A stretch of 64,000 nt of DNA from Candidatus Omnitrophota bacterium (GCA_029561735.1 JAKQWZ010000019.1:19388-83387), one strand, 5' to 3'. Positions 1 through 13,288 are shown, counted from the first letter of the stretch. Notes: generated by a model from the letters alone, not told the origin. Numbers and translations: made by a program.

Positions 1-1112
1 CGTCCGTTCTCGCCGAGCCTTTTGGCATAACCCGGGCTGTTCAATAACTGCTTTATCGCAAAACCCGCCCCGTCTATTGAATGGCAGAGCAAGCCCGAAT
101 ACTTATGTTTTATCTGCAAAGGAATACCGCCCACATTAGAAGCTACGACCGGCTTGGCTTTCCATAGCGCCTCGGCAACAGTAAGGCCAAAACCCTCTTT
201 CAGCGACTTCTGGATAATAACATCCGAGGCCCTCTGCAAGGCATTCACCTCTATATCATTTTGAGACAATAATAATATATGGATATCGCTGTCGCCCTTG
301 GCTTTTTCTATAACTTCATCAATGACCTTTGCGCCTTCCGGGTCATCGGCAGCTGTGCCTCCGGCAAGTATCAACTGGCAATCAATATATTTCTTAACCA
401 GAGAATACGCATCTATTACCCCTAACGGATCTTTTAAGCGGTCAAAACGCGATATCTGAGTTATAATCGGTTTATTTCTGATAATGCCGTATTTTTTCAA
501 TACAGCATCAATTATTTCAGGCGCAAGCTCCATATTTTTCTCGCTTAAGGGGTCAATTGAGGGAGAAATAAGAAATTGCCTTATCGGCAGCTTCTGGGCA
601 AAAGACGGAGAGGAAAAAACAGCCGAATCATATTTAACGATAAAATCCATCAGGAATTCCCATACCCTTTTATTCGGGTTTGAAACATCTATGTGGCAGC
701 GCCAGATCCATTTATTGCCGGATTTTTTATTTACCAGGGCTATCGGCTGAGGGTCATGGATAAACATTATGTCTGCCTGGGTTTCCATGCTTTCTATATT
801 ATGCCGGCTTGTTTCCATAAATACCTCAAAATCCTTATCCGTTACCTCTTCCGGCCTGCCGTGCAGGACATTATGGAATTTTTTTGTCACTTCAAAAAAC
901 TGCTCGCCGCCTTTTATCACATCCCATTTTGCGTCTACACCTAAATCTTTTATCAAAGGAGACATGCGGCTTAATATCTCGGCGACCCCGCCACCTACAG
1001 AAGTAGAATTTATATGCTGGATAGTTTTGCCTTTCAGCTTATCTGCCAGCAATCTCAAATCATCAATAATAGACTGTCCTACTATGGGGATATATTCTTC
1101 AAGCTTTGCCAT
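1..1112 (-). CDS. treT: Trehalose glycosyltransferring synthase TreT (GT4 family). The 3' end is cut by the window edge. ATG at 1110-1112.
   Basis: Hand translation of the minus strand from 1112 gives MAKLEEYIPIVGQ...INSTSVGGGVAEIL...WRCHIDVSNPN...SPSIDPLSEKN...PIITQISRFD...KEGFGLTVAEALWKAKPV. From memory these match the conserved blocks of archaeal and bacterial TreT. The gene is absent from the ORF track because no stop codon falls inside the window. Confidence 0.75.
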   Translation of the reverse strand, partial: MAKLEEYIPIVGQSIIDDLRLLADKLKGKTIQHINSTSVGGGVAEILSRMSPLIKDLGVDAKWDVIKGGEQFFEVTKKFHNVLHGRPEEVTDKDFEVFMETSRHNIESMETQADIMFIHDPQPIALVNKKSGNKWIWRCHIDVSNPNKRVWEFLMDFIVKYDSAVFSSPSFAQKLPIRQFLISPSIDPLSEKNMELAPEIIDAVLKKYGIIRNKPIITQISRFDRLKDPLGVIDAYSLVKKYIDCQLILAGGTAADDPEGAKVIDEVIEKAKGDSDIHILLLSQNDIEVNALQRASDVIIQKSLKEGFGLTVAEALWKAKPVVASNVGGIPLQIKHKYSGLLCHSIDGAGFAIKQLLNSPGYAKRLGENG

Positions 1113-1784
1113 TTATTCTAAGATCCTTTTTTCAATTATATGGATTATATTATTGCGCAGGTCTTCCAGGGTGCGGGTATACGGGTCAAAAGAACAAATC
1201 TCATCTGCCAGCAGTTTATCCCCCAGGGAATCCTCTATCCAGAAAGAAAAATCATTTGACGACCTTTCAAGCCTGAGCCGCGCCTCAAAAATATGAAAAT
1301 AAATAGAATCAATAGTGATCTTTTTCAATATTTGTACAAAATCTTCCAGATTATAAGCAACATAATCTGTGGGCAGGATAAAACTTACGGATTTGACAAA
1401 ATGGAACTCTTCTCCGGACCTGGCAAATTTAAGCTTGGCCATAGGGTTATTTTGCAGGTACTCCTCTATTGTCCGGGTTATTTTCGCCCTCAAGCCGCTG
1501 ATAGTTGAAAACTCCATAGTGTCAATACTCGCCAAGTTCTCTCCTAATTCATCTTCTCCTAATATTTCGCTCACCCAATAGGCGAAATCATTGGGCGGTT
1601 CCGGAGAAAGATACTGATGCTGCTGTAGAAACCTGTGGGTATGGTGGTAGATGCATGAACCGGGCACTTCTTTAATAAGCGTTACAAACTGGCTTAGGGT
1701 CGTTGCCCTTAAGCCGGTTAATTCCGAAAGATGCAATCTTGTGCTGAATCTAAACGGGCCCTTTGCTTGCCGGTGTTTAATCAT
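1113..1784 (-). CDS. Hypothetical 223-aa protein inside the trehalose operon, with no recognised motif.
   Basis: Complete ORF. Its stop overlaps the treT start and its start overlaps the otsB stop (ATGA-type coupling). No signal peptide or transmembrane segment. Confidence 0.5.
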   Translation of the reverse strand: MIKHRQAKGPFRFSTRLHLSELTGLRATTLSQFVTLIKEVPGSCIYHHTHRFLQQHQYLSPEPPNDFAYWVSEILGEDELGENLASIDTMEFSTISGLRAKITRTIEEYLQNNPMAKLKFARSGEEFHFVKSVSFILPTDYVAYNLEDFVQILKKITIDSIYFHIFEARLRLERSSNDFSFWIEDSLGDKLLADEICSFDPYTRTLEDLRNNIIHIIEKRILE

Positions 1785-2578
1785 TTTTCTTTTATCAACT
1801 CCAGATCCTGTAATAATTGCGCAACCTGCGCAGGGTTTTTTACATAATATTGGGCTTCGGATTGCCCGGATTCGCCCACAAATACAGTCAGCCCTTTGCC
1901 CCTTAGCGCCTTAAAAGCATCCTCATCCGTAACATCATCTCCTATATAAATGGGAAAGACCTGCTTATCTTTGGATGCAAATACCTGCCGGGATAAAAGC
2001 CATAACACAACTTTGCCCTTGTCCCATTGCACTGCAGGGCAAACCTCAAATATCTTCTTGCCGTACTTGACTTTGAGCCCTGCATTCTCCTTATACGGCG
2101 CTAATGCCTCCTCAAATATTGCTTTTATCTGCGGTATTTGGCTCTCTTCTGCCATCCGGTAATGCAGGCTTAAACTCAAGCCCTTGTCCTCAATCAGCAG
2201 GCCTTTAATAGAAGAATAATTCCCGGCCAAAACACCTTTTATTTGTTCAAGATTTTTCCTGAAATCCGCGGCAACGGTATAGACAAACTTTATTTTCGGC
2301 CCTTCAATCTCCAGGCCATGGTTGCCGGAATATATTATATTATCTATCTTTATTTTTTCTTTCAGGTCGCTTATACTGCGGCCGCTAATAAAAGCCAGGC
2401 AGATTTGGGGGTTAGCGGCCAGCTTTTTGATCAGCCCGCTGGTTTCATCGCTAAGGGTAGCCTGGTCCGGAGTTGCGGTAATAGGCGCTACTGTGCCGTC
2501 AAAATCCAGAAATATGAACAGATATTTATCTTTGAGGCTTTCCTGGATCCGGCCCCAATTATCAAACAGATAATCCAT
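1781..2578 (-). CDS. otsB: Trehalose-6-phosphate phosphatase (HAD family)
   Basis: HAD motif I FLDFDGTV near the N-terminus, a C-terminal GDDVTDEDAF motif, 265 aa. Translationally coupled to otsA upstream. Confidence 0.8.
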   Translation of the reverse strand: MDYLFDNWGRIQESLKDKYLFIFLDFDGTVAPITATPDQATLSDETSGLIKKLAANPQICLAFISGRSISDLKEKIKIDNIIYSGNHGLEIEGPKIKFVYTVAADFRKNLEQIKGVLAGNYSSIKGLLIEDKGLSLSLHYRMAEESQIPQIKAIFEEALAPYKENAGLKVKYGKKIFEVCPAVQWDKGKVVLWLLSRQVFASKDKQVFPIYIGDDVTDEDAFKALRGKGLTVFVGESGQSEAQYYVKNPAQVAQLLQDLELIKEK

Positions 2579-2582
2579 ATTT

Positions 2583-4823
2583 TTATGGCTGGTTTTTGTT
2601 TAAAGCGGTTAATTCCGTGATTATGTTGCCTGCCCAGCGGTAAATGTTATTTTCTGCCACTATCTTGCGCATATTCTGCATACGCCGCAGCCTTTCCTCT
2701 ACGGGCATTTCCACGGTAAACTTAATAGCGTCAGCGAATTCTTCTATTGAATACGGGTTTATCTGCACTGCATCAGTCAATTCTCTGGCAGCTCCGGTAA
2801 AGCGGCTAAGCATCAAAGCGCCGCTTGAATCAGACCGCGAAGATACATATTCTTTTGCCACCAGGTTCATTCCGTCGTGCAATGAGCTGACAATACAGAT
2901 ATCCGCCAAAAGATAATATGGCTTGACTTCTTCAGGAGAGAAATACCTCTTAAGATAAATTATCGGCCTCCAGATACCGTCGGAATATTTCCAATTTTTC
3001 TTTTCCACCAGCTCATCTATCTCGCCTATGAGGTCATGATAACGTTTTATGTGCGTACGGCTGGGGGCGGCCAGCTGGATAAAGACAAATTTATCCTTGT
3101 ATTGAGGGTATTTTTCTAAAAACCGGTCAATAGCAAGTATCCGCTCGACTATCCCCTTGGTATAATCTATCCTGTCAACTCCGACGGCGACTATCTTATC
3201 CTGCAGCTGCAATTCATGGCGGATTGATTCTATCTTTTCTGTCTCAGCTTTAGTCGTTTTAACATTGGCGTACCCGTCAACGCTGATCGGAAAAGACCTG
3301 ACAAACGTCTCCCTGCTGCCCCTGATAACGCTGAACTTTTCCGTATCAACGCGGCATTCAATCAGCCGGTTTGCCGTATCCAAAAAGTTATTGCAATGCA
3401 CCTGCACATGAAAACCGATCAGATCGCATGAGAGCATACCGTCAAGTATCTCATGCTGATAAGGACAGATGGCAAATACTTCGGGGTTCGGCCATGGTAT
3501 ATGCCAGAATAAGGCTATAGTGACATCAGGCCTTTTCTCCTTAATCATTTTGGCCAGCAGAGTAAAATGATAATCCTGTATGAAAACAAAGGGGTTCTTT
3601 GCAGGCAGTTCTTCTAAAACGCTATTGGCAAATTTCTGGTTGACCTCTTTATACATCTGCCAGTCAGTTTCCCTGAATATAGGGCGCGTATGGGTAACAT
3701 GGCATAGCGGCCACAGGCCTTCGTTGGAAAAACCATAGTAGTAACCGTCCTCTTCTTCTTTGTTCAGCCAGACCCTTTTTAGAATATAACGGTTATCTTC
3801 CGGAGGAACGCCTAATTTGTTCTTGGAGTTTATGAATTTTCTATCTGCATCGCCGCTCCCGTGGGCAATCCAGGTGCCACCGCATGCGCGTAATATCGGG
3901 TCTATGGCAGTGACAACGCCGCTGGCAGGGCGCACGCACTTAGGCGTGCCGCTTATATCATTAGAAACATGCATATAAGGCTCCCTGTTAGATACTACAA
4001 TAAAAGTATTCTCTCCGAGCTTGGCATGAATGAGGTCCCTTAATTTATCTTCTGTCCAGGCCTCTTCTTTTTGAATGCGGGCATGCGCTTTTTCGGATAC
4101 GGCCTTGCGGGCAACCCTCAAGCCCAATGCCACCTGCTCCACTTCGCTTACCAGTTTGCCAAATTCTCCCTTTTCCTCAAATGGGCGGAGTTTTTCCAGC
4201 TCGCCTTTTTGAAAATGAGTAAACCATTGCGTAAGCCTTCGCACAGGCAGAATAAAAATCTGCCTCTGGATTAACAGGGCAATCCCAATAATAGATACTA
4301 TTAGAATAATCAGGGTAATGCTTATCCTTTTCCACAAAACAGCCAGAGTGGTGAACAAATAGGATGTATCATAAACAACCTCTACTGCTCCCAGTAAACT
4401 TTCATCGTCTCCTAAAATCGGCAGGATATAGCTATACACCGAATAATCCCCGAATTTTTCTATTCCCCCGCGGGCAGCCCTGGCATTAAAAGAATCTTTG
4501 ACATAAGGCTTATCTTTCTGCCCCCAGCCGGAGATCCTTTCGGTAATAGCCAGGATCGCGCCTTCCTTATCATAAACTACGCAACCCTGCATCCTCTCTC
4601 TCTTCTGGAAGCTTTCCGCCAGGCGCTTAATTGATTTTAAATCATTATTAATCAGCGCATACCTTGCTGATAATTCAACGCTTTCAGCAACGGTCTTGGC
4701 CTTCCTTTTCAGGTCATCCATCAGCTTATCCTCTTCGTATTTGACCTGAATTATGCCGAAAATGGTCAATGCAGCCGATACTATAATCAAAATCGGCAAT
4801 ATGAATAATAAAATCCTCTTCAT
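2583..4823 (-). CDS. otsA: Trehalose-6-phosphate synthase (GT20) with an N-terminal TM-sensor-TM-HAMP module
   Basis: The C-terminal ~470 aa carry the GT20 signatures VVSNREPY, GGLWPLCH and IQDYHFTLL. The N-terminal ~280 aa contain two hydrophobic helices (about residues 5-25 and 165-188) around a ~140-aa predicted extracytoplasmic domain. A HAMP-like stretch follows (PVRRLTQWF...GEFGKLVSEVEQVALGL). Confidence 0.8.
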   Translation of the reverse strand: MKRILLFILPILIIVSAALTIFGIIQVKYEEDKLMDDLKRKAKTVAESVELSARYALINNDLKSIKRLAESFQKRERMQGCVVYDKEGAILAITERISGWGQKDKPYVKDSFNARAARGGIEKFGDYSVYSYILPILGDDESLLGAVEVVYDTSYLFTTLAVLWKRISITLIILIVSIIGIALLIQRQIFILPVRRLTQWFTHFQKGELEKLRPFEEKGEFGKLVSEVEQVALGLRVARKAVSEKAHARIQKEEAWTEDKLRDLIHAKLGENTFIVVSNREPYMHVSNDISGTPKCVRPASGVVTAIDPILRACGGTWIAHGSGDADRKFINSKNKLGVPPEDNRYILKRVWLNKEEEDGYYYGFSNEGLWPLCHVTHTRPIFRETDWQMYKEVNQKFANSVLEELPAKNPFVFIQDYHFTLLAKMIKEKRPDVTIALFWHIPWPNPEVFAICPYQHEILDGMLSCDLIGFHVQVHCNNFLDTANRLIECRVDTEKFSVIRGSRETFVRSFPISVDGYANVKTTKAETEKIESIRHELQLQDKIVAVGVDRIDYTKGIVERILAIDRFLEKYPQYKDKFVFIQLAAPSRTHIKRYHDLIGEIDELVEKKNWKYSDGIWRPIIYLKRYFSPEEVKPYYLLADICIVSSLHDGMNLVAKEYVSSRSDSSGALMLSRFTGAARELTDAVQINPYSIEEFADAIKFTVEMPVEERLRRMQNMRKIVAENNIYRWAGNIITELTALNKNQP

Positions 4824-4886
4824 TAAGCTCTCCTTAAAATAAAATTGCCACCTTGCCCTTAATGCAAGATGGCGGCCCGGCCATCT

Positions 4887-4914
4887 GAAAAAATCCTCCG
4901 GGAATATACCCCGG
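4887..4914 (-). terminator. Putative intrinsic terminator downstream of nadE
   Basis: On the minus strand there is a CCGGG/CCCGG stem with a 7-nt loop, followed by AGGAUUUUUU. It lies between the nadE stop (4955) and the otsA start (4823). Confidence 0.3.
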
Positions 4915-4954
4915 ACCCTTATTTATTATAACATTATATTAACAATTATCAAGC

Positions 4955-6631
4955 CTACCCCTTATACCCGTTAGTGATGGGCATGCGGCGGTCCCTGCCG
5001 AATGCCTTGGGCGTAATCTTAATGCCCGGCGGAGACTGCCTGCGTTTATATTCGCTCCTGTCCACTAAACGCATTACATCCAAAACCGTTTCTTTTTTAA
5101 AGCCGGACTTTACAATCTGATTTAACTCCTTATCTTCTTCCACATATGCTTTTAAAATAGGATCTAATTCCGCATAAGGCGGTAGCGTATCTTCGTCTTT
5201 CTGGTTATGCCTGAGTTCTGCCGTAGGCGGCTTGGTAAAAATACGTTCCGGAATGATCTGATGCACGGAATTTTTCCACCTGCAGATCTTATAAACCAGC
5301 GTCTTAGGGACATCTTTGACTACGGCCAGGCCTCCTGCCATATCCCCGTAAAGAGTGGCATATCCTGTGCTCATCTCGGATTTATTTCCTGTGGTAAGCA
5401 CCAGCCAGTGGAATTTATTAGATAAAGCCATAAGGATATTGCCGCGTATGCGGGCCTGAAGGTTTTCTTCGGTGATGTTTCTTTCCAGGCCAGCAAAATG
5501 AGGCTCTAATATCATCAAATACATCTTATATGCCTGCTCAATAGAAATATTTATAAATTGTATCCCTAAATTCCGGCAAAGCTGCTTAGCGTCAATCTCG
5601 GATTCCGGGGAAGAATAATGCGTAGGCATAAAAACGCCCGTAACATTATCTTTTCCCAATGCATCGGCAGCCACAGAAGCAACCAGCGCCGAATCAATCC
5701 CTCCGCTTACGCCGATAACTGCTTTGCCAAAACCGTTTTTACCCGCATAATCCTTTACTCCCAGCACCAGGGCCCGGTAGACCTCTTCCGGAGCAGTCAA
5801 AGCCTGAAAATGCCGTTTTGGCAATTTAGGTTTTTTCCGTAACGCCGGGTATTTTTCCAATAATATAACTTTTTTCGATCCAGCCCTGGCAGGAACCACC
5901 TTGAGGTCAACCATAAGCAAGTCCTCTTCAAAAGCAGCAGCCTTTTGAATAATATTCCCTTTTGCCGATACAACCATGCTTTGGCCGTCGAAAACCAGTT
6001 CATCCTGCCCTCCGGAAAGGTTCACATAAGCAATATCCACCCGGCTCTTTTTTGCCTGCCCTCTTAATATGGATTCCCTTAACTTTACTTTTCCGGCATA
6101 ATACGGCGAGGCATTAATATTTAAGACAAGTTTTGCGCCCAATTTCGCATGCATCATTGCCGGGCCGTCTTTATGCCAGATATCCTCGCAAATATTCACT
6201 GCGAACACCAATCCGCCGTAATTAAAAACCATGGTTTTTTCACCAGGTTCAAAATACCGCTCTTCGTCAAACACGCCGTAATTAGGCAAGAACATTTTAT
6301 GGTATATTCCGCGGATTTTGCCTTTATATACAATTGCTGCCGCATTATATAAAGACCCTCCATGCCGGTCTACAAAACCGATAACTGCGACTATGTCCCT
6401 GACTTCTCCGGCCAACTGCTTAAGTTCATGGATATTATCGGCGATAAATTTAGGTTTTAACAATAGATCTTCCGGCGGATAACCGGTAACTGCCAATTCC
6501 GGAAAACAGGCTATATCCACTCCGGCGTCTTCGCACCTTTTAAGATAATAGCGTATCTTGGAACAATTTGCCTCCAAGTCGCCGACTCGGCAATTAATCT
6601 GGGCTAAAGCTATTCTTATATTATTTTTCAT
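4955..6631 (-). CDS. nadE: Glutamine-dependent NAD+ synthetase (N-terminal nitrilase/CN-hydrolase domain plus C-terminal NAD synthetase domain)
   Basis: 558 aa. N-terminal carbon-nitrogen hydrolase region (CFPELAVTGYPPEDL). C-terminal PP-loop GVSGGIDSALVASVAA. Confidence 0.85.
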   Translation of the reverse strand: MKNNIRIALAQINCRVGDLEANCSKIRYYLKRCEDAGVDIACFPELAVTGYPPEDLLLKPKFIADNIHELKQLAGEVRDIVAVIGFVDRHGGSLYNAAAIVYKGKIRGIYHKMFLPNYGVFDEERYFEPGEKTMVFNYGGLVFAVNICEDIWHKDGPAMMHAKLGAKLVLNINASPYYAGKVKLRESILRGQAKKSRVDIAYVNLSGGQDELVFDGQSMVVSAKGNIIQKAAAFEEDLLMVDLKVVPARAGSKKVILLEKYPALRKKPKLPKRHFQALTAPEEVYRALVLGVKDYAGKNGFGKAVIGVSGGIDSALVASVAADALGKDNVTGVFMPTHYSSPESEIDAKQLCRNLGIQFINISIEQAYKMYLMILEPHFAGLERNITEENLQARIRGNILMALSNKFHWLVLTTGNKSEMSTGYATLYGDMAGGLAVVKDVPKTLVYKICRWKNSVHQIIPERIFTKPPTAELRHNQKDEDTLPPYAELDPILKAYVEEDKELNQIVKSGFKKETVLDVMRLVDRSEYKRRQSPPGIKITPKAFGRDRRMPITNGYKG

Positions 6632-6736: not shown

Positions 6737-7231
6737 CTAATTAGATTCTTTAATTAACTCTTGGATTATTTCTTTTAAATGCATTACAGCGTGCTTGACC
6801 TCTTCGCTTACTTGAGCAGAAAATTTGACTGATTTAGGCTGGATACCGATGACCATTATATCGCTCTTCAGGCTCATCCGCAAATATTGCGCAAGCATCT
6901 TCAGCGGCAGGCGGTGTGTAGAAAACGAGTCTCCCGCAGTTTGTTCCGGGTCAAAAATCCTGATTGTCCCCGGTTTTTCCTGCAAGTCAGCGCAATCTAT
7001 AATAATTAAATGTGTGGGGCTATACTTTTTTATTTCACCGGTGAGGTTTTCCGGGGCAGTGGCTCCGATAAAAATGCGGAATTTTCCGGTATTCTCCAGC
7101 CCTTGAACAGCCAAAAGCCCTGCCGCATCATCGCCTTTTAAATCCGAACCTATTGCCAAAAGCGCGACTCTCTGTGCTGATCCCAGCCTATTCTCCAGAG
7201 CTTTCTTTATTTCCTGCAATACTTGGGCCAT
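6737..7231 (-). CDS. [NiFe] hydrogenase maturation endopeptidase (HycI/HyaD-like)
   Basis: 164 aa with LLAIGSDLKGDDAAGL (the GNxxxGDDGxG-like motif of this protease family). It is the last gene of the hydrogenase operon. The annotated start overlaps the upstream gene by 44 nt, so the true start is probably internal. Confidence 0.6.
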   Translation of the reverse strand: MAQVLQEIKKALENRLGSAQRVALLAIGSDLKGDDAAGLLAVQGLENTGKFRIFIGATAPENLTGEIKKYSPTHLIIIDCADLQEKPGTIRIFDPEQTAGDSFSTHRLPLKMLAQYLRMSLKSDIMVIGIQPKSVKFSAQVSEEVKHAVMHLKEIIQELIKESN

Positions 7232-7580
7232 CGGTCAGGGTAATTTTTAACTTCTTGGGGTCTAATTGGGCGAGCTCAAATTCAGAGGTTAACCCTAAGG
7301 CTTTTTTCAGGCAAGAATCAACGCACTGGCCGCAATAAATACATTTACCCAAATCAAGGTCAGCTTCAAATTTTTTCTCTCCTACCTGCCTGATCACTAT
7401 AGCGCCTGTGGGGCAGTCTTTCATGCACATCTTACATCCTATGCACTTAGATGCGTCAAATTTTAATTTGCCGCGAAACCCTTTAGGCATGCCTGACTTA
7501 TCAGCCGGATAATTCACAGTTGCCGGTTTTTTAGTCAAAGAGCTCAAAAGTTGCCTGATCATTGCCCCGGGCCAGATCAT
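7188..7580 (-). CDS. 2x[4Fe-4S] ferredoxin-like hydrogenase subunit (NuoI/MbhN/EchF-like)
   Basis: Two cysteine clusters, CIGCKMCMKDCP and CIYCGQCVDSC, in a 130-aa protein. Confidence 0.7.
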   Translation of the reverse strand: MIWPGAMIRQLLSSLTKKPATVNYPADKSGMPKGFRGKLKFDASKCIGCKMCMKDCPTGAIVIRQVGEKKFEADLDLGKCIYCGQCVDSCLKKALGLTSEFELAQLDPKKLKITLTDGPSIAGNKESSGE

Positions 7581-8518
7581 TTGAATAAAGCTCCTTTAAG
7601 AATAAGGTTTATTATAACCTGCAAGAACGCCAGCGGAGCAAACACTCTCCAGCATAAATTGATCATCTGGTCAAGCCTCAAGCGGGCAAAAAGCGAACGC
7701 AGTAATGAAACCAGAGAAATAAGCGCCGCGACTTTTAACACATAGATAATAAAACCGGCGATTGGCCCGGCATCCAACCACCATGGCATAAATACCGCTG
7801 CCAAAAGGCTGATACCGACTACCATCTCAATATTTATGGATAATCTGAATAATGCCAGGAGCCGGCCGCTATATTCGGTAAAACTGCCGGCAACGATCTC
7901 TGTTTCAGCTTCGGGTATATCAAAAGGGACTTTTTCCAATTTTCCTAAAAGCGTAATTTGAGCGATTACAAACCCAAGGATATTAAATACCCAATACCCC
8001 GGATGCGCGCTGTAAAATGCGGCCATTTTGCTTAAAGACCAGGTATCTGCCAAAAGCGCTGCAGCAAGTATGGTCATAAATAGCGGGACTTCATAGGCAA
8101 AAAGCTGGGTCAAAGACCTGACTGCCCCGATCATTGAAAACACCGAACGCGAATACCACCCTCCGAGAAAATAAGTCAAGATCGGCACAGTCAACAGGTA
8201 TAATACAACAACTACGTCGCCGTTAAACGAATAAAGCGCATTTTTTCCCCAAAGCGGGATATAGAAAAAAGCGCAAGACACAGAAGTAAGCGCAAAAACC
8301 GGCATCAGTTTAAAAACCCGGTTATCTGCCTCTTCAGGAATAATATCCTCCTTGCCCAAAAGTTTGATAAAATCAGCCAGCGGCTGAAACCACGGAGGGC
8401 CGACCCTGTTTTGCAGGCGAGCACCCAATTTACGGTCGAAGAACTCAGCAGCTAAGCTGAAAAAAAACAAAAACAGCAAACCGGGGAATATCAGGATATT
8501 AAAAATCGGCATTAACAT
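7577..8518 (-). CDS. Membrane subunit of group-4 hydrogenase (NuoH/MbhM/EchB-like)
   Basis: 313 aa, polytopic. The NuoH-family motif RKLGARLQNRVGPP is present. Confidence 0.75.
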   Translation of the reverse strand: MLMPIFNILIFPGLLFLFFFSLAAEFFDRKLGARLQNRVGPPWFQPLADFIKLLGKEDIIPEEADNRVFKLMPVFALTSVSCAFFYIPLWGKNALYSFNGDVVVVLYLLTVPILTYFLGGWYSRSVFSMIGAVRSLTQLFAYEVPLFMTILAAALLADTWSLSKMAAFYSAHPGYWVFNILGFVIAQITLLGKLEKVPFDIPEAETEIVAGSFTEYSGRLLALFRLSINIEMVVGISLLAAVFMPWWLDAGPIAGFIIYVLKVAALISLVSLLRSLFARLRLDQMINLCWRVFAPLAFLQVIINLILKGALFK

Positions 8519-8521
8519 TTT

Positions 8522-9739
8522 TTAGAAAGTTTTATTCAATTTTGCAAAATCTATCCCCCGCTTCTTGTACCACTCAATACTATCGCGGTGGATCTTTTCC
8601 CATTCAAATGTATTTTTGGAATTATGATCAACATAATTTATGCTAACCAGCCTGTCTGTGCATGAAAAACACGGGTCAATTGCCGCTACCACTATCGGCA
8701 TATCAGCCAGGTACCTGTCCTCAAGCATAAGCGCGACTGCCTGCACATTAGCTAAAGTCGGAGCGCGCACTTTTACGCGGTCCGGTTTATCTGTCCCGTT
8801 GGCCCTGACATAATGCAGGTCTTCTCCTCTGGGCGCTTCATAACGGCTGACAGCTTCTCCAACAGGGATCTTCCTTGGCGCCCGCACTGAAATCGGCCCC
8901 TCAGGCAATTTAGCCAGCAGCTGGCGTATTATTTGAAAAGATTCCATCAGCTCTAGCACCCTCACAATGGTCCTGCCATAAACATCGCAGGTATTGTGCG
9001 TGATCACTTTAAAATCAATATCAGCATAAGCAGCATAGGGATCGTCTTTTCTTACATCGCGCTGCACTCCTGATGCGCGCGCAGTCGGGCCTACCGCGCC
9101 CATGCGTATTGCGTCTTCATAAGAAAGCATGCCTACTTTGGACAGCCTGTTGATCAGGGTAGGCTCCTCGCCGGCAATCTTAATATAATATTTTGTCCTT
9201 TCTTCCAGCGTATCCACTCCCTTAAGGACTTGAGGTATCTGCTCAGCTTTTATATCGCGCCTTACTCCGCCGATAGTATTCATACCATAATTCACCCGGT
9301 TCCCGGTCAGTTGTGCCAGAATATCCATAACCACTTCCCTGTCGCGCCAGGTATACATCAATAAAGTGTCAAATCCGATCTCATGCCCGGCAACGCCCAA
9401 CCACAAAAGATGGCTGTGGACCCTTTCTAATTCAGCGACTATTGTGCGGATATACTTTGCCCGGGCCGGTATCTCAATACCGGCAATCTCTTCCACTGCC
9501 TGAGCAAAAGCAGTTGAATGCGAATGCGAGCAAATCCCGCATATCCGTTCAATCAAATAAAGATCTTGAATATAAGTCCTGCCCTCGCAGGCCTTTTCTA
9601 TACCGCGGTGATTATAACCGATTTTAACCGAAGCGGCGGTGATCTTTTCGCCGCGCAAGGTCAGCAAAAAACTCTCCGGTTCTTTTAATGCCGGGTGCTG
9701 CGGGCCTATAGGGACTTTCACATCTCCTGTATTATGCAT
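8522..9739 (-). CDS. [NiFe] hydrogenase large subunit, group 4 (MbhL/EchE/NuoD-like)
   Basis: N-terminal Ni-binding motif RICGICSHSH and C-terminal DPCFSCTDR. Both Ni-Fe ligand cysteine pairs are present. Confidence 0.85.
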   Translation of the reverse strand: MHNTGDVKVPIGPQHPALKEPESFLLTLRGEKITAASVKIGYNHRGIEKACEGRTYIQDLYLIERICGICSHSHSTAFAQAVEEIAGIEIPARAKYIRTIVAELERVHSHLLWLGVAGHEIGFDTLLMYTWRDREVVMDILAQLTGNRVNYGMNTIGGVRRDIKAEQIPQVLKGVDTLEERTKYYIKIAGEEPTLINRLSKVGMLSYEDAIRMGAVGPTARASGVQRDVRKDDPYAAYADIDFKVITHNTCDVYGRTIVRVLELMESFQIIRQLLAKLPEGPISVRAPRKIPVGEAVSRYEAPRGEDLHYVRANGTDKPDRVKVRAPTLANVQAVALMLEDRYLADMPIVVAAIDPCFSCTDRLVSINYVDHNSKNTFEWEKIHRDSIEWYKKRGIDFAKLNKTF

Positions 9740-10211
9740 CTGCGCCCTCCAGTTTCATCTCAAGGCCTGCCCCTTTCCAATCTTTGCGTAAGGGGTGCTC
9801 GCCTTTTGGCCATCCATCAGGAAGCGGGTATCTTCTTCCTTCAGGCAGGCCATCAACATGAATACCTAAAAGATCTTCCAGCTCTCTCTCATACATCTCG
9901 GCTATCGGAAAATACTGCATGATGCTTTTGATATGAGGTTTTTCGCGGGAAATCTTTACTTTTAGATTAACCATAATTTTACCTTCCGGGCTCATATGAT
10001 AGATCGCGGCAAAATTCTCTACCTCGTCTAAACCGGTAATGCCCGAAAGCATAGCACAGCGCATTTTCTTGATCATGTAATCCAGCACATCGTGAAAACG
10101 CTCAAAAGGCACATCAACAAAAATACGCCTTGCCCTTTTAATCGTTATATTGCCATTCAAAAAATCAAATTTTCTTTCCAGATCGTTCTTAATTGCCTCT
10201 TCCGGGCTCAT
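9732..10211 (-). CDS. NuoC/MbhK/EchD-like 30-kDa subunit
   Basis: 159 aa with ERELEDLLGIHVDGLP, a NuoC-type motif, sitting between the small and large subunit genes. Confidence 0.7.
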   Translation of the reverse strand: MSPEEAIKNDLERKFDFLNGNITIKRARRIFVDVPFERFHDVLDYMIKKMRCAMLSGITGLDEVENFAAIYHMSPEGKIMVNLKVKISREKPHIKSIMQYFPIAEMYERELEDLLGIHVDGLPEGRRYPLPDGWPKGEHPLRKDWKGAGLEMKLEGADA

Positions 10212-10257
10212 ATATTATCCTCCAATAAAATACCATAATTGCCAATAGGGCATTATG

Positions 10258-10704
10258 CTATTTTTTCTTGGGGCTCTCCTCCAAACTGTTAAGCAGCTTC
10301 GTTACCCCGTCAATAAGCGCCTTTGGGCTTGCCGGGCATCCGGGAATATACGCTGACACCGGAATAACCGTATTTATTCCGGCTTTTACATTATAACAGC
10401 CTTTAAAAACCCCTCCTGTGCAGGCACAAGTCCCTACGGCAACAACAAATTTCGGTTCAGGCATCTGTTCATAAATCATTTTCAAACGGGATTCAATCTG
10501 GCGCGTAACCGGTCCGGAACATAAAAGCACATCCGCATGCCGGGGGGTACCTTTAAGCAAGACCCCGAAACGCTCCAGGTCATATGTCGGCGTCAGGCCG
10601 GCAATGATTTCTATATCGCAGGCATTACAAGCCCCGGTATTAAAATGCAATACCCACGGAGATTTACGCCTGCCCCAATTGACTATTTTTGTAATAACCC
10701 CCAT
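10258..10704 (-). CDS. Hydrogenase small subunit / NuoB-like [4Fe-4S] subunit (MbhJ/EchC)
   Basis: CNACDIE...GTCACTGGVF...IPGCPASP cysteine pattern typical of NuoB or group-4 small subunits. Confidence 0.8.
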   Translation of the reverse strand: MGVITKIVNWGRRKSPWVLHFNTGACNACDIEIIAGLTPTYDLERFGVLLKGTPRHADVLLCSGPVTRQIESRLKMIYEQMPEPKFVVAVGTCACTGGVFKGCYNVKAGINTVIPVSAYIPGCPASPKALIDGVTKLLNSLEESPKKK

Positions 10705-11052
10705 TTATTCTCCCTTCTTGCCCAATAAGACAAATAAGCCCGTAACCGCGCCCATAATATAAAAAAGCGCTATAGTAAAGGTATTGACGCTTTCAATAGG
10801 CACGGTAGCAATAACCAGCGCAACCACATGCAGGATAGTAAAGAAAAAAGCAAAAGGAAAAAACTGGCTGTAATCCGGCTGGATCATATGGCCTGTAAAT
10901 TCTTCGCCGCAGGAATAGGCTTTTTTCTCATCAGCGCTCTGGGCGGTCTTTCTCCTGAAAGAAAGCCGCGAAAACAAAAGTGCCGTAAAAAATATCACCA
11001 CAAAAAGTATTGTAAATGCGACTGCCGGGGACAATAGAAAATCTCTGGGCAT
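10705..11052 (-). CDS. Small integral membrane subunit of the hydrogenase/Mrp module
   Basis: 115 aa with three hydrophobic helices, in operon context. Confidence 0.4.
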   Translation of the reverse strand: MPRDFLLSPAVAFTILFVVIFFTALLFSRLSFRRKTAQSADEKKAYSCGEEFTGHMIQPDYSQFFPFAFFFTILHVVALVIATVPIESVNTFTIALFYIMGAVTGLFVLLGKKGE

Positions 11053-11053
11053 A

Positions 11054-11377
11054 TTATCCTTTAAGGTTCTTTAATTTTCTGGTATCAATGGAGTGGTTAT
11101 GCTTATACAGGCACAGGATAACCCCTCCTGCAGCCACCATTATAACTACTTCAATGACAATTAGAGTAATGACTATTGCCTGGGCCAAAGCCTGGCGCCC
11201 GGTTAACTGGCCGCAGACGATTATCAACAGAGTAGCTGCCTTGATCAAGATCTCTACTCCAACCAAAACCCGGATAAGATTAAAAGTCGCCAAAACGCAA
11301 TAAAGCCCGGTTATGAATAAAAGGGCGGCAAATATGCTGTATAACCAAAATACCTGCGATAATTCCGGGGTCATCAT
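11054..11377 (-). CDS. MnhC/MrpC/NuoK-like membrane subunit
   Basis: 107 aa, three TM helices, typical size and hydropathy. Confidence 0.5.
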   Translation of the reverse strand: MMTPELSQVFWLYSIFAALLFITGLYCVLATFNLIRVLVGVEILIKAATLLIIVCGQLTGRQALAQAIVITLIVIEVVIMVAAGGVILCLYKHNHSIDTRKLKNLKG

Positions 11378-11859
11378 TTACGCGGCTCCTTAAATAAAAT
11401 AACCACTGCAAAAGCCCCTGCTAAAAGTATAACAATCTGGCCCAGTAAATCCAAATGCCGCACATTCCAAAGCAACAGGCGCACATCAGTTTCACCTGCG
11501 GCAGCAGGAAGCATCAACGCCGGTATCTTTAACCAGCGTAAAAGCGCTAAACCCGCTACGACTACGATGACGGGCAAAAGAAAAAACCTGATAAAACGTT
11601 CTCTCCTGCGTTCCTGTATCTGCGACTTGGCAATACGCTGAGTAAAACTTATCGTGGTAATAAATATGACCGGGATAAGCCCTGCGCAAACCGATAATTC
11701 AAAAACAGCAGCTACGGGAGAATTCAGCCGGAAGATGATTATTGATAATACCGCGCTGGTCAGCGCCAGCCCGACCACAGAACGCAATAACCGCGTGGTC
11801 ATAACCGTCCACAATGCCGCTGCAAGAAGGCCCAGTAATAATAAAATTTCCATCGCCAT
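11374..11859 (-). CDS. MnhB/MrpB-like membrane subunit
   Basis: 161 aa, polytopic, overlapping neighbours by 4 nt. Confidence 0.45.
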   Translation of the reverse strand: MAMEILLLLGLLAAALWTVMTTRLLRSVVGLALTSAVLSIIIFRLNSPVAAVFELSVCAGLIPVIFITTISFTQRIAKSQIQERRRERFIRFFLLPVIVVVAGLALLRWLKIPALMLPAAAGETDVRLLLWNVRHLDLLGQIVILLAGAFAVVILFKEPRK

Positions 11860-11860
11860 A

Positions 11861-13288
11861 TTATCTTAAAATTTCCTGTATCGGTAAAATTAATTTATCC
11901 AGCACCCAAAAAAAGCCTACTCCTGCTGCCACGGTAATTCCCGCCAGTAATGCCGCCGGAATAGTTATTCCGGCGCCGGCCTCTTTAACAGATTCCAGGC
12001 TTAACGCAAGCTTGCCAAAGAAAACCCTTCGCTGCATAGAAAGAAAATATGCCAGGGTCACCACGCTGAATATGACCGCTATATAAGCATAAGCAAAATT
12101 CCCGGCGCTCCACAAAGCCATTATTATGATCAGCTTGCTCCAGAACCCGGCTAAAGGCGGTATCCCGGCTGTAGATAATAAGGCAATAACCGAAGTGGCC
12201 CCGGTCACAGGCATTTTTTCCGAAAGGCCTCCAAGATTATCCATATGGATTGACCCGGCCTGTTTCTCAACTGCTGCGGCATTGATAAAAAGAAGGGTCT
12301 TGAATATTGTATGGTTAAAAAAATGGAATGCCGCGCCCGCAATAGCCAAAGGAGTTGCGCAGCCCAGGCCTAAAATTATATACCCGACCTGGCTGATACT
12401 TGAATATGCCAGCATACGCTTAAAATCATGCTGGGTCAATGCTGCCAATGCCCCGAAGGCAATAGAAACTGCCCCGGCCAGCATAAGCAGGTTTTGTATC
12501 GCCGGATTTATTCCAAAGACCGAAATCACCAGCCGCATCAATACATAGACGCCGGTGACTTTAGTAATAATGCCTGCCAACAGCACTGATACTGCTGACG
12601 GCGCTGCTGAATACGCATCCGGCAGCCATCCGTGAAACGGCACAAGCCCGGATTTAATAAACAAGCCGCATAAGAAAAGCCCGATTGCCAGCTTGACTAT
12701 CGGATTTCCTGACTGCGCGCACAAACCCGAAGCAACTACTCCGAAATCAGTGTCCCCGCAAACCAGAATTATCAAAGCTATTGAAACCAGCATTAAACAA
12801 GTGGCTATGGAAGACATTACCATATACTTAAATGCCCCTTCCAAAGCCAGGCGGTCTTTCTGTATTGATATAAGCACAAAAGACGATACGGCAACAATCT
12901 CCATAAAGATATACACCGAAAATAAATCCGCGGCCAGGACAGTCGCATTCATCCCTATCACTGCAACCATCAATAAATTAATAAAATTGCTCTTCTGGGA
13001 TTTTTCCCTGAACAGGTTATTTCCTGCCAACAGGGCGGCAAAAGCCGCAACGCCGATAGAAAGAAGCAATAACAGGCTTAGAGGGTCCAGCGACAGTTTA
13101 AAAATAAAAATCCGGCTCAACTGCCTGGCAACCGGATTAATTATGCCGGTTGAGAATAGTAATGCCAGGGCCGACTGGGCTATGAATAAAAAAGCGGACC
13201 AGAACAAAGCCAGCCGGGTAGAATGCTTCCCCGGAATATTGAATACAATCAAACTTAAAAAAGGTATTGAAACAAACAACGACAACAC
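11861..13288 (-). CDS. NuoN/MrpD-like antiporter-type subunit
   Basis: 475 aa, polytopic, with the conserved block WLPDAY..AP found in the NuoL/M/N proton-pumping family. Confidence 0.7.
   Translation of the reverse strand: MLSLFVSIPFLSLIVFNIPGKHSTRLALFWSAFLFIAQSALALLFSTGIINPVARQLSRIFIFKLSLDPLSLLLLLSIGVAAFAALLAGNNLFREKSQKSNFINLLMVAVIGMNATVLAADLFSVYIFMEIVAVSSFVLISIQKDRLALEGAFKYMVMSSIATCLMLVSIALIILVCGDTDFGVVASGLCAQSGNPIVKLAIGLFLCGLFIKSGLVPFHGWLPDAYSAAPSAVSVLLAGIITKVTGVYVLMRLVISVFGINPAIQNLLMLAGAVSIAFGALAALTQHDFKRMLAYSSISQVGYIILGLGCATPLAIAGAAFHFFNHTIFKTLLFINAAAVEKQAGSIHMDNLGGLSEKMPVTGATSVIALLSTAGIPPLAGFWSKLIIIMALWSAGNFAYAYIAVIFSVVTLAYFLSMQRRVFFGKLALSLESVKEAGAGITIPAALLAGITVAAGVGFFWVLDKLILPIQEILR

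Follow-up and report, generated by a model that had tools for sequence, protein, structure and literature searches.

The gene at positions 2583-4823 of a 64,000-nucleotide (nt) stretch of DNA from a Candidatus Omnitrophota bacterium (GCA_029561735.1 JAKQWZ010000019.1:19388-83387; this whole stretch is hereafter called the window) encodes a trehalose-6-phosphate synthase fused to a membrane sensor module, and is referred to here as sensor-otsA. Its product, sensor-OtsA, is probably a receptor-enzyme in which an input module of the histidine-kinase type directly controls trehalose-6-phosphate synthase, and the gene heads what appears to be a salt- or osmosis-related operon under a cation riboswitch.

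The open reading frame (ORF), including the stop codon, occupies positions 2583-4823 on the minus strand, as do all window features described below, begins with ATG and encodes 746 amino acids (aa); its limits agree with Pfam matches and homologues. A ribosome-binding site, AAGGAG (4830-4835), lies 6 nt upstream of the start codon. Kyte-Doolittle analysis found exactly two hydrophobic segments, enclosing 140 residues: the first transmembrane helix TM1 (aa 4-26; 4746-4814; hydropathy peak 2.96) and the second, TM2 (aa 167-189; 4257-4325; peak 3.11). The enclosed extracytoplasmic domain (aa 27-166; 4326-4745) has a single-Cache, or PDC, fold, as indicated by AlphaFold2, Foldseek and a weak Pfam match to sCache_3_2. 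It is followed, after TM2, by a HAMP region (aa 190-238; 4110-4256), delimited by conservation, AlphaFold2 and hhalign, in which the first helix AS1 begins at Pro193, the connector at Gly207 and the second helix AS2 at Glu227. A conserved helical linker (aa 239-273; 4005-4109), defined by conservation, spacing and the structural model, then enters strand beta-1 of the GT20 catalytic domain (aa 274-739; 2607-4004; Pfam E = 3e-118). The architecture TM1-Cache-TM2-divergent HAMP-helical linker-GT20 is thereby confirmed. The original prediction, made from the sequence alone, had described the same layout, with about 140 residues outside the membrane and a GT20 domain behind a HAMP-like linker, and it is borne out by hydropathy, AlphaFold2, hhalign and Pfam; the size of about 470 aa that it gave for a canonical OtsA agrees with the 474 aa of the Escherichia coli enzyme. 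The two transmembrane segments flank a domain with the fold of an extracytoplasmic sensor, and the N-terminal region is not a soluble regulatory domain.

An identical protein is present in public metagenome data. The best 120 homologues share 74-100% identity and are nearly all 743-746 aa long, and more than 100 Omnitrophota homologues at 74-85% identity have the length of sensor-OtsA. An assembly chimera was considered and rejected on the basis of the identical protein and these homologues of the same length. Named close homologues are labelled as trehalose-6-phosphate synthase of Candidatus Omnitrophota. The positive-inside rule is ambiguous for sensor-OtsA, as five Lys/Arg residues follow TM1. 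The Cache domain is placed outside and the GT20 domain inside because the topology of the homologous kinase sensors is known and because GT20 needs cytoplasmic nucleoside diphosphate glucose (NDP-glucose) and glucose-6-phosphate. A cleaved signal peptide was considered as another reading of TM1; an equivalent helix is kept in the homologous kinases.

The sensor module is homologous to the input modules of WalK/DcuS-type histidine kinases. A profile built from 20 diverse N-termini of the family was compared by hhalign with the corresponding modules of five genuine histidine kinases, picked from sequences that already matched the query, and aligned with a probability of 99.9% (E = 2.8e-32, 250 columns). 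In this alignment, Pro193, Gly207 and Glu227 fall on the Pro, Gly and Glu of kinase HAMP domains which themselves pass Pfam at about E = 1e-13 to 1e-15. These three residues, the HAMP signature, are invariant or nearly invariant across the family, and the region, which directly follows TM2, fits the helix-connector-helix pattern (in AlphaFold2, helix 154-205, a loop and helix 220-250). NCBIfam aligned aa 2-241 to the N-terminus of WalK (E = 7.5e-7), and the diguanylate cyclase DgcN and the phosphatase SiaA were among its weak matches to the N-terminal region. Precomputed matches to sCache_3_2, dCache or CHASE8 exist for some close homologues.

The predicted fold leads to the same relatives. 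The AlphaFold2 model of aa 1-272, a monomer built from 39 sequences with a mean predicted local distance difference test score (pLDDT) of 81, contains a long helix (2-58), a PDC-type helix/strand core (62-152) and a second long helix (154-205), followed by a 14-residue connector, a helix at 220-252 and a short helix at 258-269. The Cache domain, where pLDDT is about 85-90, consists of a long helix and then a helix-strand-helix-strand core of the PDC type. The top Foldseek match in the PDB was the integrative full-length model of WalK (9a5d; E = 1.3e-12, 266 aligned columns), and the next were crystal structures of the extracellular domains of WalK/YycG (5is1, 4ywz, 7dud), DcuS (3by8) and CitA (2j80). 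The crystals gave TM-scores, normalised to target length, of 0.66-0.79 at a root-mean-square deviation of 2.5-3.9 Å, and the Foldseek probability was 1.00 for 5is1, 4ywz, 3by8 and 2j80. Neither HisKA/DHp nor HATPase_c domains were found in the 746-aa protein by Pfam and NCBIfam; therefore, sensor-OtsA is not a kinase, despite its kinase input module.

Searched exhaustively with HMMER, 1.84 billion cluster representatives yielded 586 proteins similar to aa 1-270 at E ≤ 1e-3. Distant matches that cover the whole module at 21-30% identity are mostly GT20 fusions as well, and the remaining long matches without GT20 are classical kinases with sCache_3_2 or Cache_WalK, HAMP, HisKA and HATPase. This indicates that one input module serves two kinds of output. 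The fusion is widespread and is not a one-off: a scan for the back-translated junction motif EARLR-x6-WTxERL over one genome per species matched at least 120 loci and found the module in at least 119 species genomes, in a single ORF with GT20 wherever the locus was uncut. The scan is biased to carriers of the exact motif, which most Omnitrophota do not have, and its taxon list is a lower bound. Among the matches listed, record titles name at least 11 phylum-level groups; most of these matches belong to Acidobacteriota (Terriglobia, Bryobacterales, Vicinamibacterales), and the others listed include Elusimicrobiota, Bacteroidota (Bacteroidales, Chitinophagaceae), Omnitrophota, Methylomirabilota/Rokubacteria, Planctomycetota, Verrucomicrobiia, Gemmatimonadota, Eremiobacterota (Elarobacter, Baltobacteraceae), Dormibacterota and one 'Saccharimonadales' bin. 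Among the Bacteroidota, the fusion is carried by Niastella soli MAH-29, a strain in culture. The sensor-OtsA fusion is an old family. Databases label the fused proteins plainly as trehalose-6-phosphate synthase, and fragments of them as 'cache domain-containing protein' or even 'sensor histidine kinase'.

The Saccharimonadales entry is a full-length fused gene on a 104-kilobase (kb) contig (DATHFT010000033.1; locus L075) binned as Candidatus Saccharimonadales, which is unexpected for a reduced genome of the candidate phyla radiation. It may be due to a binning error or to horizontal transfer, and the membership of Saccharimonadales should be treated with caution.

The part of the protein exposed outside the membrane varies in architecture or is missing. 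In an Elusimicrobia member (L051, 3272-5116), the order is transmembrane helix, 3-residue loop, transmembrane helix, HAMP, linker and GT20, and the periplasmic domain is absent; a Vicinamibacterales member (L115, 2915-5149) has a short loop between its transmembrane helices, and other members bear insertions. The invariant core of the family is TM2-HAMP-linker-GT20, and the input domain behaves as a swappable module, in the manner of signalling proteins. One further sequence (L020, 2961-5102) apparently has neither TM2 nor AS1, and may be a pseudogene or an assembly error.

The junction between sensor and enzyme was examined in an alignment of 67 sequences, the window protein and 66 full-length members from other phyla, whose N-terminal regions share only 20-28% identity with that of the window protein. 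The distance from Glu227 of HAMP to Trp256 is 29 residues in 67/67 sequences, and that from Trp256 to the arginine of the SNR motif (Arg280) in strand beta-1 of GT20 is 24 residues in 63/67. Lengths are more variable for the HAMP connector (Gly207 to Glu227), at 18 to 27 residues, and for the periplasmic domain, at 129 to 155. The length of TM1 (22 aa between boundary columns) is invariant in 67/67, and that of TM2 in 66/67. Exactly 16 residues lie between WTxERL and SNR in all 50 database proteins that bear both motifs. The linker motif EEARLR-x6-WTxERL-x16-SNR is among the best-conserved stretches of the N-terminal half, its most conserved residues being A238, A246, R249, W256, T257 and L261. 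In the full-length model (pLDDT 82), the AS2 helix extends to residue 250, is broken at Trp-Thr and is followed by a helix at 258-268 and by beta-1 at 274-278.

Such constancy bears on the explanation that the N-terminal half is a membrane anchor only, which would site trehalose-6-phosphate synthesis at the inner face of the membrane, near channels, transporters or the membrane lipids protected by trehalose, with HAMP and Cache as kinase relics that pass no signal. The weak Pfam scores of both domains, given below, would suit such relics, and so would a periplasmic domain that has few conserved residues and is missing altogether in some members; MscS and transporter genes also often adjoin. 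For anchoring, however, a single transmembrane helix would suffice in place of a conserved TM-domain-TM-HAMP unit, and the members devoid of the periplasmic domain nevertheless retain TM2, HAMP and the linker. Few N-terminal positions are conserved as well as the Pro/Gly/Glu signature of HAMP and the linker. Register-dependent signalling fits the fixed length between HAMP and output better than plain anchoring does, because signalling by register requires a fixed length and a tether does not; invariance at 20-28% identity is what register coupling, and not tethering, predicts. Mere anchoring is thus rather unlikely, and the sensor and the enzyme appear to be mechanically coupled through the fixed-length linker.

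The GT20 domain itself seems to be intact. Its Pfam match (Glyco_transf_20) reaches 396 bits against a cut-off of 32.5 and spans profile positions 3-472 of 473. Residues R9, G22, Y76, W85, D130, H154, R262, K267, R300, D361 and E369 of E. coli OtsA, which we take to bind the donor diphosphate and sugar and glucose-6-phosphate, are identical in sensor-OtsA and in 67/67 family members; the E. coli reference sequence used is identical to that of PDB 2wtx. The SNR arginine of strand beta-1 presumably binds the phosphate of glucose-6-phosphate. The domain is 32% identical to E. coli OtsA and 49-57% identical to fused members from other phyla, and its best solved relative is an OtsA chain (5jij; E = 2e-87). 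With its catalytic residues in place, the domain is predicted to be catalytically competent. It represents a divergent subfamily, judging from the comparisons above, and its donor or acceptor preference could differ from that of the OtsAs studied.

A number of observations weigh against the interpretation of sensor-OtsA as a receptor-enzyme. The Pfam HAMP model (PF00672) scores 13.5 bits (E = 0.09) on sensor-OtsA, below the gathering cut-off of 25, and sCache_3_2 scores 17.6 bits (E = 0.004), below its cut-off of 28.4; at E ≤ 0.01, HAMP was detected in 2/20 and sCache_3_2 in 4/20 diverse family members. The sCache_3_2 scores range from 17.6 to 20 bits when family members are included and all remain below the cut-off, and the best HAMP match in another member has E = 1.7e-6. 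The preselection of the kinases used in hhalign belongs to the same side. Few residues of the periplasmic domain are conserved (G80, Y84, G88, P135, G145, D152, Y155), and no ligand pocket or conserved pocket motif could be recognised from them. All structural models are monomers, which give no view of the HAMP four-helix bundle or of the placement of GT20. In the enzyme, the NCBIfam equivalog cut-offs are missed (TIGR02400, OtsA, 418.8 vs 564.85 bits; PRK14501, 480.3 vs 634; PRK10117, 265.1 vs 759), and 63 invariant positions specific to the fused family differ from E. coli OtsA, so that substrates might differ. Finally, we know of no precedent for the control of a GT-B glycosyltransferase by HAMP. 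The scores of HAMP and Cache below the Pfam cut-offs are compensated by the hhalign, Foldseek and NCBIfam WalK matches; the HAMP assignment stands on its homology to kinase HAMP domains and on the Pro/Gly/Glu signature.

The missed equivalog cut-offs lend some colour to another explanation, namely that the product of GT20 is another compound, for example glucosylglycerol-phosphate or some other sugar-phosphate, or that its donor is unusual, and that the protein is a sensor-linked synthase of another solute. A match of 306 bits to the GgpS model, the 63 family-specific positions, which include three cysteines, and the variability of the position of E. coli Phe339 point in the same direction. 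The OtsA models nevertheless score well above GgpS, all residues of E. coli OtsA for glucose-6-phosphate and the donor diphosphate are invariant, and the best solved relatives are all trehalose-6-phosphate synthases. Moreover, the adjacent phosphatase exceeds the trehalose-phosphatase equivalog cut-off, and treT with its OrfY partner is encoded in the same operon. A different product is improbable.

That GT20 is a ligand-binding or regulatory domain and not an enzyme, with information flowing from sugar-nucleotide status to the membrane module or to partners, is highly improbable: nothing specific speaks for it beyond the existence of catalytically weak GT20 proteins in eukaryotes, such as the class II plant TPS proteins, which have been proposed to be regulatory, and against it stand catalytic residues invariant in 67/67 members, a dedicated phosphatase gene that directly follows in many lineages, and the absence of any other GT20 gene within the 64-kb window.

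Some features of the fused GT20 domains are worth recording in their own right. Cys453, Cys477 and Cys643 (nt about 3463-3465, 3391-3393 and 2893-2895) are invariant in 67/67 fused members and absent from E. coli OtsA; Cys374 is found in 63/67 and Cys314 in 58/67. These cysteines might constitute a redox or metal site. Residue 628, at the position of E. coli Phe339, is Phe in both sensor-OtsA and the E. coli enzyme and is His in 55/67 and Cys in 9/67 family sequences. Since Phe339 presumably lies near the donor nucleotide, this variation may mark differing NDP-glucose preferences within the family.

The gap of 131 nt between nadE and the start codon of sensor-otsA contains a candidate regulatory leader. 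A putative sigma-70-like promoter (4925-4952; TTGATA, a 16-nt spacer and TG-TATAAT), assigned by its match to the consensus, agrees with it at 11 of 12 hexamer positions and possesses an extended -10 TG; it is located immediately after the nadE stop codon and is the best-scoring site in positions 1-5200. Downstream of it, Rfam model RF03057 recognises an nhaA-I riboswitch aptamer of the Li+-I/Na+-II class (4867-4918; 47.3 bits against a gathering cut-off of 37, E = 1.2e-8, model positions 1-55 of 55). The aptamer is overlapped by an intrinsic-terminator hairpin with a U-run (4837-4873), which has a stem of 10 base pairs (bp) followed by AAUUUUAUUUU; the z value of the leader fold is -2.65. The 5' arm of the terminator, GCCAUCU, is at the same time the 3' arm of aptamer stem P2. 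The two folds are therefore mutually exclusive, which is the design of an antitermination ON-switch, and homologous leaders demonstrate the same design. As judged from the RNA sequence, transcription should read through only when Na+ (or Li+) is elevated.

The nhaA-I RNAs were validated as Li+ riboswitches by White et al. 2022 (PMC9646797), who also found that rare terminator-bearing variants, in which a C replaces a conserved U, are responsive to Na+; these were named Na+-II. The variants were known there only from Deltaproteobacteria, upstream of genes of unknown function. Of the 944 nhaA-I RNAs in that study, 16 were upstream of 'otsA', and an osmotic role was speculated upon. The P2 loop reads GGCCGGGCC in the window, AGCCGGGCC in the Na+-II RNA of D. 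propionicus and GGUCGGGCC in the Li+-I RNA of R. eutropha. At the variant position, the window loop shares C with the validated D. propionicus Na+-II RNA, in contrast to the U of the Rfam consensus and of the validated Li+-I RNA. Hence the leader combines two Na+-II features, a terminator platform overlapping P2 and C for U in the P2 loop. The variant C presumably corresponds to 'position 54' of White et al.; the stored construct sequence is 67 nt long and not 71.

The Rfam riboswitch was detected in 10/17 related loci of Omnitrophota and Elusimicrobiota (L124, 4871-4930; L125, 3706-3765; L123, 3775-3829; and L028, L031, L039, L041, L067, L091 and L095). A P2-overlapping hairpin always follows it, usually with a U-run. 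The riboswitch lies directly upstream of sensor-otsA in five of these ten loci and is separated from it by another gene in the remaining five (MscS in L123). The variant loop position is U in all ten, unlike the C of the window. A regular-expression search of 103 non-Omnitrophota loci yielded three true cases, all from Elusimicrobia, and one probable false match; within these loci, no riboswitch was found upstream of acidobacterial sensor-otsA genes.

Four closely packed genes follow one another on the minus strand, beginning with sensor-otsA. After 4 nt comes otsB, encoding a trehalose-6-phosphate phosphatase of 265 aa (1781-2578; TIGR00685, 169 bits against a cut-off of 68; Pfam Trehalose_PPase, E = 2e-47). 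The start of the next gene, which encodes a DUF5752/OrfY-family protein of 223 aa (1113-1784; Pfam DUF5752, E = 1.6e-67), overlaps the otsB stop by 4 nt; its product matches PDB 4cso, 'ORFY protein, transcription factor' (E = 2.2e-21). The last gene, whose start abuts the DUF5752 stop and whose 3' end lies beyond the window, encodes a treT-like GT4 trehalose glycosyltransferring synthase (3-1112; TreT_GT1, E = 4e-55). Its product matches the solved structures 6zj4 (E = 2.7e-113) and 2x6q, TreT (E = 2e-94), and falls below the NCBIfam TreT equivalog cut-off (349 vs 775 bits), so the real acceptor could differ. One transcript would then encode two independent routes to trehalose, OtsA/OtsB and TreT.

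The order sensor-otsA, otsB, DUF5752, treT is kept in 5/5 loci from three Omnitrophota relatives (four distinct contigs). The fusion gene is directly followed by otsB in 42/76 loci with at least 900 bp of downstream sequence. Among 53 loci from other phyla with at least 2.6 kb downstream, otsB, then DUF5752, then treT occur in 13, otsB only in 18, DUF5752 then treT in four and two otsB-like ORFs in one; none of the three genes follows in 17. Wherever DUF5752 is present in these loci it is followed by treT (17/17), as it is in the five Omnitrophota loci. The DUF5752 protein looks like an obligate, uncharacterised partner of TreT, bacteria included. The upstream neighbours in the Omnitrophota relatives vary, and all are related to ions or osmosis: a Na+/H+ exchanger with TrkA_C in L121 (3343-4815), an SNF-family transporter and MscS upstream of the cassette in L123 (1159-2727 and 3874-4923), and a P-type cation ATPase upstream of it in L124 (1519-4215). 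An osmotic role had been suggested in the original prediction, which did not extend to the other operon genes or the leader; the otsB/OrfY/treT operon, the nhaA-I riboswitch and these neighbours agree with it as regards context.

Upstream of nadE in the window (6737-13288, minus strand), the ORFs resemble, by eye, those for a hydrogenase maturation protease, Ech/Mbh-type [NiFe] hydrogenase subunits and Mrp-antiporter-like membrane subunits. This region is reminiscent of 'Hun', an H+/Na+-translocating complex described from Atribacteria and Omnitrophica (bioRxiv 10.1101/536078).

Proceeding from the receptor-enzyme interpretation, a mechanism can be proposed. The Cache domain is held outside by the two transmembrane helices, with TM2 continuing into the cytoplasmic HAMP, whose second helix runs as a fixed-length linker straight into GT20 beta-1, the strand with the SNR arginine. 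By analogy with HAMP-linked kinases and cyclases, the functional form would be a dimer. Signals arising in the extracytoplasmic domain or in the membrane would travel along TM2 and the HAMP bundle by a shift in helix register or packing. Such a shift would affect how the two GT20 domains are shaped, how open they are or how they pair, and thereby the rate of trehalose-6-phosphate synthesis; plausible routes to the active site would be beta-1 with its SNR arginine, or the relative placement of the GT20 pair. Trehalose would then be released by OtsB, the product of the next gene. The candidate stimuli are a Cache ligand, ionic strength or a membrane property, the last because of the loop-less variants. 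There would be two layers of control: transcription would respond to the cytoplasmic cation level, and enzyme activity to the sensor module. Regulation of catalysis by the module is inferred from the architecture and the linker; its sign (activation or inhibition), the dimeric state and the kind of stimulus are likewise matters of inference. The original idea of a sensor whose output is an enzyme and not a kinase is supported by the kinase relatives of the module, the intact catalytic residues, the fixed linker length and the swappable input; the direct control of catalysis that it implied is probable.

A broader proposition, which we consider evenly poised, is that these proteins form a hitherto undescribed class of receptor-enzymes in at least 11 phylum-level groups, where Cache (or the membrane) and HAMP directly gate a glycosyltransferase of primary metabolism. 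A cue from outside or from the envelope could thereby switch compatible-solute synthesis within seconds, bypassing kinases, second messengers and fresh transcription; for Omnitrophota and Elusimicrobiota, the addition of the cation riboswitch would make a two-input controller, with internal Na+ acting on transcription and the external cue on activity. To our knowledge, this would be the first case of HAMP driving a GT-B glycosyltransferase.

If this is true, the outputs of HAMP extend from signalling enzymes to a biosynthetic one, and HAMP mechanics gain a new experimental system that is read out by simple chemistry. As a one-protein system, it would allow both stimulus and output to be measured in vitro. 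The way in which bacteria convert the sensing of osmotic stress or dehydration into rapid post-translational control of compatible solutes is still poorly understood. The family is common in soil Acidobacteriota and in phyla that are hard to culture, and the cultivation of Niastella soli makes genetics feasible. A full-text literature search, the coverage of which did not extend to subscription journals, found no published description of an OtsA/GT20-HAMP fusion, and a 2024 Chem Rev survey of trehalose-6-phosphate synthase-type enzymes mentions neither HAMP nor a membrane-bound OtsA. Through the nhaA-I link, the 'otsA' genes of White et al. 2022 are probably sensor-otsA genes, and the leaders described above extend the terminator-type nhaA-I variants to Omnitrophota and Elusimicrobiota.

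Compared with known systems, sensor-OtsA shares with the soluble OtsAs (E. coli 1gz5/1uqu/2wtx; mycobacterial 5jij) a GT-B GT20 fold colinear from beta-1 to the C-terminal helix, the same binding residues and an adjacent otsB. The soluble enzymes, however, are cytosolic proteins of about 455-490 aa that start at beta-1, whereas sensor-OtsA has 273 extra N-terminal residues. As far as is known, soluble OtsAs are regulated mostly by transcription and by allosteric metabolites. The kinases WalK/YycG, DcuS and CitA possess the homologous input module in the same order and topology (with HAMP in WalK); sensor-OtsA differs from them by having no DHp/HisKA, ATPase domain or partner response regulator, and its output is a biosynthetic glycosyltransferase. 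A membrane sensor, HAMP and an enzyme are also combined in one polypeptide in the diguanylate cyclase DgcN/YfiN and the PP2C phosphatase SiaA, and the mycobacterial adenylyl cyclase Rv3645 is another HAMP-linked signalling enzyme. The outputs of such proteins are signalling molecules or protein modifications that act elsewhere, whereas the output of sensor-OtsA would be an end-product pathway with no second messenger.

A functional parallel to the operon is the msc-gt-tpsp operon of Thermoproteus tenax, in which the synthase is activated by a complex with a glycosyltransferase (Zaparty et al. 2013, PMC3634074). There, as proposed for sensor-OtsA, trehalose-6-phosphate synthesis is tied genetically to a device for membrane stress, and its control acts on the protein. 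T. tenax likewise has the TreT pathway, and PDB 4cso, the 'ORFY protein', is a homologue of the DUF5752 gene product of the window. In T. tenax, however, the membrane part is a mechanosensitive channel in its own right, through which trehalose has been proposed to leave the cell; the activator is a separate protein, and the fusion partner of the synthase is a phosphatase and not a sensor. The leader RNA resembles the nhaA-I/Na+-II RNAs of White et al. (PMC9646797) in its Rfam match, terminator platform and P2-loop C; the architecture of otsA was not examined there, and here the host is a member of Omnitrophota and the target a sensor-otsA operon. Thus, both halves of the protein and HAMP-linked enzymes as such were already known, and the novelty lies in a glycosyltransferase of primary metabolism serving as output and in how widely the family is spread.

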